A DNA stretch of 11,469 nucleotides from a virus (taxonomy: Duplodnaviria; Heunggongvirae; Uroviricota; Caudoviricetes): positions 1-11,469 of IMG/VR virus record IMGVR_UViG_2660238126_000001; one strand, written 5' to 3'. The notes under the pieces were generated by a model. The model saw only the letters and a list, made by a program, of their open reading frames with translations. It was not told the DNA's origin and searched no databases. How positions within the stretch are numbered: the first letter of the stretch is position 1; each line of letters opens with the position of its first letter. Of this stretch, positions 1 through 11,469 are shown piece after piece. The position numbers were made by a program, and so were the translations under genes.

Positions 1-329
1 GGTATACGGAACAGTATGGCGTGAAGTGACCTGTGGGGCGAACTGGAATGGACATCACCAAGGACGAAACCTCCTCTCTCTGCAAAGGATAGTTATCCAT
101 CCGGGGCAACCTATACCTTTACCATAACTTCCGGCATAGCCACCTTGCTACAATCAAGGGGTGTTGAAGAAACATCCGTTTCGTGGTGCTTTTTTAGTCT
201 TTTGGGGATTTAAATTCCTATCGATGAACGGGGAGGAGATCTGGCCCTGGATGTTACCAACCGATCCCCGCAGACATTTGCTTTCAGAACAGTCTGAAAT
301 ATCAGTAATATCTGCAACAGGATGCCATT

Positions 330-347
330 CTTGTTTGCACGAACCAT
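330..347 (-). pseudogene. cII: cII 5' remnant: first 6 codons (MVRANK) with lambda-like RBS, then unrelated sequence
   Basis: Reverse complement of 330..360 reads aggaaatacttacat-ATG GTT CGT GCA AAC AA, matching the lambda cII start as I recall it. The downstream translation (NGILLQILLIF...) is low-complexity and not cII-like. Confidence 0.6.
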
Positions 348-5432: not shown

Positions 5433-5803
5433 CCCCCTTTCCTGTTTTCCTAATCAGCCCGGCATTTCGCGGGCGATATTTTCACAGCTATTTCAGGAGT
5501 TCAGCCATGAACGCTTATTACATTCAGGATCGTCTTGAGGCTCAGAGCTGGACGCGTCACTACCAGCAGCTCGCCCGTGAAGAGAAAGAGGCAGAACTGG
5601 CAGACGACATGGAAAAAAGCCTGCCCCAGCACCTGTTTGAATCGCTATGCATCGATCATTTGCAACGCCACGGGGCCAGCAAAAAAGCCATTACCCGTGC
5701 GTTTGATGACGATGTTGAGTTTCAGGAGCGCATGGCAGAACACATCCGGTACATGGTTGAAACCATTGCTCACCACCAGGTTGATATTGATTCAGAGGTA
5801 TAA
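5387..5803 (+). CDS. gam: Gam (138 aa), RecBCD inhibitor
   Basis: Translation [22 protein letters not shown]... with internal Met ([15 protein letters not shown]...) corresponding to GamS, ending ...[10 protein letters not shown]. Confidence 0.95.
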
Positions 5804-10765: not shown

Positions 10766-10984
10766 ATGTACTTGACACTTCAGGAGTGGAACGCTCGCCA
10801 GCGACGCCCAAGAAGCCTTGAAACAGTTCGTCGATGGGTGCGCGAATGCAGGATATTCCCTCCTCCGGTTAAGGATGGAAGAGAATATCTGTTCCACGAA
10901 TCAGCGGTAAAGGTTGACTTAAATCGACCAGTAACAGGTAGCCTTTTGAAGAGGATCAGAAATGGGAAGAAGGCGAAGTCATGA
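10766..10984 (+). CDS. xis: Excisionase Xis (72 aa)
   Basis: Translation MYLTLQEWNARQRRPRSLETVRRWVRECRIFPPPVKDGREYLFHESAVKVDLNRPVTGSLLKRIRNGKKAKS matches lambda Xis from memory. Confidence 0.96.
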   Translation: MYLTLQEWNARQRRPRSLETVRRWVRECRIFPPPVKDGREYLFHESAVKVDLNRPVTGSLLKRIRNGKKAKS

Positions 10985-11175
10985 GCGCCGGGATTTACCC
11001 CCTAACCTTTATATAAGAAACAATGGATATTACTGCTACAGGGACCCAAGGACGGGTAAAGAGTTTGGATTAGGCCGAGACAGGCGAATCGCAATCACTG
11101 AAGCTATACAGGCCAACATTGAGTTATTTTCAGGACACAAACACAAGCCTCTGACAGCGAGNNNCANNAGNGNTN
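10962..11175 (+). pseudogene. int: Integrase Int, N-terminal arm-binding region only (about 71 codons); lambda-like sequence stops after a patch of ambiguous bases
   Basis: Translation MGRRRSHERRDLPPNLYIRNNGYYCYRDPRTGKEFGLGRDRRIAITEAIQANIELFSGHKHKPLTA matches lambda Int from memory and overlaps the xis 3' end. The defined bases within 11161..11175 are consistent with int, but from 11176 the sequence no longer encodes Int and stops at 11211..11213. Confidence 0.8.
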
Positions 11176-11469
11176 ATGTACGAGCTAAATGTTACTCCGT
11201 TAAAATAAATTAGTAACAAACGCCCTATAACGTACTGAAAATTATGCCTGTGATCTAGCGCCAAAAATCAGTATTTCGGCGTGAACTCGCAAAATATTAA
11301 CGATTCAGCCGTGATAGTGGGATAAACACCTTAGAACGCCGGATAAAGACTGATAATTGTCTTCGACGGTCGGGTAAAACGAGACATCGCCCCGGCACGA
11401 ATCACTACTTAACACGGATGGCTTCAGCCCCCGTTTTCACACGAAGGTCGATGCGGCGACCAAATCGTT

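Follow-up and report, generated by a model that had tools for sequence, protein, structure and literature searches.

A break in the lambda-type int gene of a draft prophage contig is best explained as a computed assembly join

The lambda-type integrase gene int breaks off near the right end of an 11,469-bp stretch of DNA (the window), where several bases are ambiguous. In draft assembly GCA_000936365.1 the window makes up contig CCBV01000177.1 in full; no mention of CCBV01 or GCA_000936365 was found in literature searches. Judged from its sequence, the breakpoint is very probably a computational join made in the draft assembly and not a biological truncation of the gene. The marks of an artefact are an N pattern that reproduces the mismatches between two parent sequences, native loci that are unlinked, a junction that recurs in no other record searched and a fragmented draft source. 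The initial annotation had raised misassembly or a contig join as a real possibility, and this possibility is strongly supported by the N pattern, by the draft status of the contig and by the patchwork found at both of its ends.

A lambdoid prophage contributes its early-left arm to the window, with the lambda orientation reversed. The genes run in the order cro (on the − strand), cI, a two-gene cassette in the slot of rexAB, N, sieB, ral, a DUF2528 gene, kil, gam, bet, exo, ea genes, xis and the start of int at position 10962. Among phages, the window is matched best by the wild lambdoid PhiR11_1, Chlobot and mEp332, with lambda itself at 97.3%. The xis gene (10766–10984, + strand) is intact in the list of open reading frames, encodes 72 aa and is 100% identical to its counterpart in PhiR11_1, where it is annotated as an excisionase. 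The 5′ part of int occupies 10962–11177 on the + strand, with codons 1–66 fully defined and codons 67–72 partly masked. Between 10700 and 11161, a segment that takes in xis and the first 66 int codons, the window is 100% identical to the xis/int region of PhiR11_1 and 98.3% identical to that of lambda. The 66 defined Int residues match the N-terminal arm-type DNA-binding domain of lambda-type integrases (Pfam Arm-DNA-bind_1, PF09003, E = 7e-33, profile positions 1–71 of 74). The lambda and PhiR11_1 modules differ from the contig in what follows: no core-binding and catalytic domains (PF00589) were found in the int frame of the contig, and the att core and arm sites that lie 3′ of int, sought by their positions in lambda, are absent from the window, their place being taken by DNA from upstream of pntA and by a piece of phage tail sequence.

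The patch itself is small and its composition is precise. There are only eight Ns in the 11,469-bp window, at 11162–11164, 11167–11168, 11171, 11173 and 11175. Positions 11160–11177 read agnnncannagngntnat, and every defined base in this interval equals the corresponding base of int codons 67–72 of lambda and PhiR11_1 (aga atc aac agt gat aat). The same codon string is present in all of the related loci that contain the flanking anchor (11/11); among related prophages, nine loci have this int sequence over the length of the patch. Agreement of the defined bases with these codons had been noted at the outset, and it holds with two corrections: position 11161 is a defined g and not an N, and the Ns span 11162–11175. 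The further statement that the downstream sequence is not int is also confirmed, with the boundary moved from 11176 to 11178; the int frame is left after codon 72 and meets a stop at 11213.

To account for the Ns we extended each parent natively into the other and wrote a base where the two agreed and an n where they disagreed. Across the patch, native int reads agaatcaacag-tgataat, and the native chromosome directly upstream of the piece matched on the right reads agccacacaagCcgctcat (L002 3984–4002). The consensus of int and agccacacaagCcgctcat, with the chromosomal capital C omitted (one 1-base gap), is exactly agnnncannagngntnat. Thus 8/8 Ns fall on mismatches and 10/10 defined bases fall on matches between int and the native chromosome, and the interval 11160–11177 can be described as an overlap-consensus patch, to which neither strand is assigned. 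The chance that a random sequence would reconstruct the whole patch is about 2e-6; with only the 5′ 11 columns considered and three registers allowed, it is about 2e-4. The chromosomal bases that account for the 5′ half of the patch lie outside the downstream BLAST match, in the native continuation towards pntA, while the Ns at 11171, 11173 and 11175 need int t, a and a against chromosomal c, c and c. The N pattern thus implies that in the underlying data both parents would run natively through the join, with int going on to position 11177 or further.

Without a gap, the consensus of int and chromosome accounts for no more than the 3′ seven columns (ngntnat), and the rest needs the 1-base gap. 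A second int/chromosome register lies about 20 bases away from the join and fails to yield the N pattern. In this register, window positions 11131–11200 and L002 3979–4040 have the words tcagga, acacaagcc and tccgtta in common, with a local alignment score of 16 that is reached by 0.25% of shuffles. This word similarity between int and the region upstream of pntA is probably chance low-complexity resemblance. It may have made an erroneous overlap easier for aligning or read-mapping software to tolerate.

Three unrelated sequences in series make up the last 310 bases of the window, and the 294 bases past the patch comprise two pieces unrelated to each other, each of which matches a native locus of its own at 100% identity. 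The first piece (11176–11414, + strand, 239 bp) is Escherichia coli chromosomal DNA from the pntA-ydgH intergenic region, is identical throughout to L002 4001–4239 and begins some 50 bp upstream of the start codon of pntA; with the patch included, chromosomal information extends over 11160–11414. This intergenic region was found in 5425/5426 complete E. coli genomes. The second piece (11415–11469, − strand, 55 bp) is identical to L005 3001–3055 and comprises the 3′ end of the lambdoid tail gene K (C40 peptidase) and the first codons of the tail assembly gene I. The join between them at 11414/11415 is blunt: at their native loci, the chromosome goes on with ttaaatt and the tail sequence follows on from ...cagtgcc. 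A search of 11176–11469, which had been proposed as a check, is thereby answered by these two pieces, and no insertion sequence (IS) is among them.

The right end of the chromosomal piece coincides exactly with an IS10/ISVsa5 insertion site in strain DETEC-S560, where the element is flanked by the 9-bp duplication tacttaaca (L001 4239/4240 and 5569–5578). In four other genomes (H2–H5) the matches likewise extend a few bases beyond the IS10 site. The pntA-ydgH intergenic region may be an IS10 hot spot, which could explain why the piece ends there, and the coincidence gives a hint that the pieces of the assembly end at repeat boundaries. We also considered IS10 at the other joins; the window holds no IS10 sequence, and by eye the end of int and the join at 330/331 are unlike the IS10 target consensus.

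A similar patchwork is present at the opposite end of the contig. Positions 1–51 (+ strand) are a fragment of a plasmid DUF1281 gene whose ungapped identity to L019 ends at 51, and which could reach 56 with a 2-base gap. Positions 52–330 (+ strand) are 279 bp of non-coding DNA from plasmids of enterotoxigenic E. coli (ETEC), 100% identical to L006 2501–2779. Homology to lambda begins at 331, which corresponds to lambda coordinate 38376, so that at 330/331 plasmid DNA is joined bluntly to codon 6 of lambda cII. This join makes a chimeric cII′ open reading frame (210–347, − strand) of 45 aa, whose exact product is on record only for CCBV01000177.1; a 65-aa version was not on record in an exact-product look-up. 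No N occurs at the joins 51/52, 330/331 and 11414/11415, all of which are clean and blunt.

The pieces at the two ends of the contig have roughly the size of a k-mer (right, 55 bp; left, 51 bp, or 56 bp with the 2-base gap), a hint of de Bruijn graph overhangs into repeats. The idea that the contig is a single de Bruijn edge with k = 55 overhangs was set aside, as the two ends disagree on k and the fit is too unclean to claim.

None of the junctions of the contig was found among 5,426 complete genomes of E. coli, 50,697 records of phages and 72,556 of plasmids. Scans for exact patterns in collections of viral, genomic and metagenomic contigs, including one for the int/chromosome junction with the Ns treated as wildcards, did not find them either. 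No two of the pieces were adjacent in any of the complete genomes.

Taken with the parental origin of the patch, these observations suggest how the join could have been produced. One sequence would have ended within a lambda-type int at about codon 72, and a second would have begun between pntA and ydgH of E. coli. Software for assembly, scaffolding, gap closing or read consensus would then have overlaid the two across about 18 columns, keeping each base on which they agreed and entering an ambiguous one at each disagreement, and the remaining pieces would have been concatenated without overlap. The rest of int, attL and ybhC would presumably lie on another contig of the same assembly. A patch that is the consensus of two parents points either to a software overlay of two sequences or to a pile-up of reads from two loci on one scaffold. 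The closest likeness is to mis-joined contigs of short-read drafts, with which the window shares its small draft contig, the juxtaposition of unrelated loci, Ns at parental differences, junctions confined to one record and one piece that ends at an IS10 site. It differs from them in that three of its four joins are blunt and lack Ns. Scaffolders usually pad gaps with Ns. Two findings count against an artefact: blunt concatenations occur together with an overlap written as an N consensus, and no specific program was matched to both; and the weak local similarity of the parents would suit real microhomology-mediated recombination as well.

Real recombination, as an alternative, can be put in two forms. 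In one, a defective prophage would have undergone an illegitimate recombination at short homology, or a deletion, that ran from about codon 70 of int through a 0.25-kb pntA filler to tail gene I, with loss of the int 3′ part, attP/attL, the b region and J, and the Ns would be low-quality calls. The tail piece does have the orientation that a colinear deletion inside a single lambdoid genome would give, int and the chromosome do show weak local similarity at the join, and rearrangements of the int region are real in three related prophages (L013, L016 and L018). Low-quality calls, however, would not hit exactly the eight mismatches and spare the ten matches. A sequenced recombination junction contains one sequence only, whereas the patch reports two. 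Moreover, the filler locus is unlinked to the lambda attachment site, the opposite end of the contig is a like patchwork with plasmid DNA, and among the genome, plasmid, phage and metagenome records searched the junctions occur nowhere else. We therefore consider a recombination with miscalled bases very unlikely. The other form supposes a true microhomology-mediated rearrangement in an ETEC-like strain, which would have left a locked-in prophage without the int 3′ part, att, the b region and J and with a templated 0.25-kb pntA filler, while native copies of both parents in that genome contaminated the consensus and gave rise to the Ns; this we regard as very unlikely. Were the join real, it would be one more case of prophage decay by illegitimate recombination, of modest interest. 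Phage DNA joined to host DNA at weak similarity is also known from specialised transducing phages and products of aberrant excision (the lambda gal and lambda bio type), but there the host DNA is adjacent to att (the ybhC, gal and bio side), whereas in the window a 0.25-kb piece of the pntA promoter is followed by phage tail sequence.

An interruption of int by an insertion sequence or transposon, with the end of the element as the downstream DNA, has precedents in the IS4-family, IS3-family and IS1 insertions in xis/int of L013, L016 and L018, and the chromosomal piece does end at a bona fide IS10 site (the tacttaaca duplication) in another strain. Yet the 239 bases past the patch are single-copy intergenic chromosome from the pntA locus, found there in 5425 of the 5426 genomes, and no transposase, terminal inverted repeat, IS end or other IS sequence was found in 11176–11469. 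We judge an element at the break to be highly improbable. Foreign DNA placed in int of an engineered lambda derivative (DE3-like, a recombineering prophage or a cloning vector) was also considered: lambda DE3 and similar constructs have an interrupted int, and a Red region and a cI region are present in the window. Against this, the closest phages are wild and lambda stands at 97.3%, the genes in the rexAB slot are different ones, and the flanks, which come from ETEC plasmids and the chromosome, contain no sequence of a vector, marker or polylinker. The match to the DE3 record ends at 11161, as it does for every other phage. An engineered origin is scarcely credible on these grounds.

Seven of the nine related prophage loci with the same int string, which also have the same upstream genes (L009–L012, L014, L015 and L017), encode a 356-aa Int followed by the pectinesterase gene ybhC, the neighbourhood of lambda attB; the remaining two, L013 and L016, have IS insertions in xis/int. 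Host DNA flanking the attachment site was not found at the junction in the window; the joined DNA comes from pntA-ydgH, whereas the related prophages adjoin ybhC. L013, L016 and L018, which sit at the lambda attachment site, belong to the same prophage family and have the same 204-aa, DUF2513 and 55-aa genes upstream. They differ from the window in having transposase genes at the break in int/xis and the remainder of int or ybhC beyond it, where the window has no IS and unlinked DNA. These three loci indicate that genuine inactivation of the int-xis module does happen in E. coli. Their insertions in the xis/int region (L013 10767–13618, L016 10767–13618 and L018 10894–11591) consist of an IS4-family together with an IS3-family element, or of IS1.

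The preferred explanation, a computed join, changes what can be said of the integrase. The initial annotation held that only the arm-binding part of Int is present. This is correct for the contig, where PF09003 covers residues 1–66, but it is not supported as a statement about a biological truncation, as the N pattern implies that native int continues. The core-binding and catalytic domains of Int and the att site are missing from the contig because the phage-derived sequence stops, and a truncation of the gene is not thereby demonstrated; the missing catalytic part reflects the contig and not necessarily the strain. A biological disruption of int is likewise not supported, given a patch that is a two-parent consensus and close relatives that carry the full 356-aa Int. 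The contig says nothing on excision, and the claim that the prophage copy is unable to excise on its own should be withdrawn. Anyone scoring the prophage from this contig would class it as defective, with a truncated int, no att and no capacity for excision, on the strength of a software join. Treating an N patch as a match/mismatch consensus of the extended parents is a test that can be reused, and it separates computed joins from real breakpoints without reads.

The cassette 3′ of cI, in the slot that rexA and rexB occupy in lambda, consists of two genes on the + strand (1520–2077 and 2074–2826). The first encodes 185 aa with a weak DUF6978 match and the second 250 aa with a DUF1828 match. 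In a comparison with a candidate defence pair from PADLOC, the matches were weak for PDC-M24A (E = 5e-4) and reached E = 6e-10 for PDC-M24B. The related prophage L017 carries a pair of equal size, with the same DUF1828 match, downstream of its cI.
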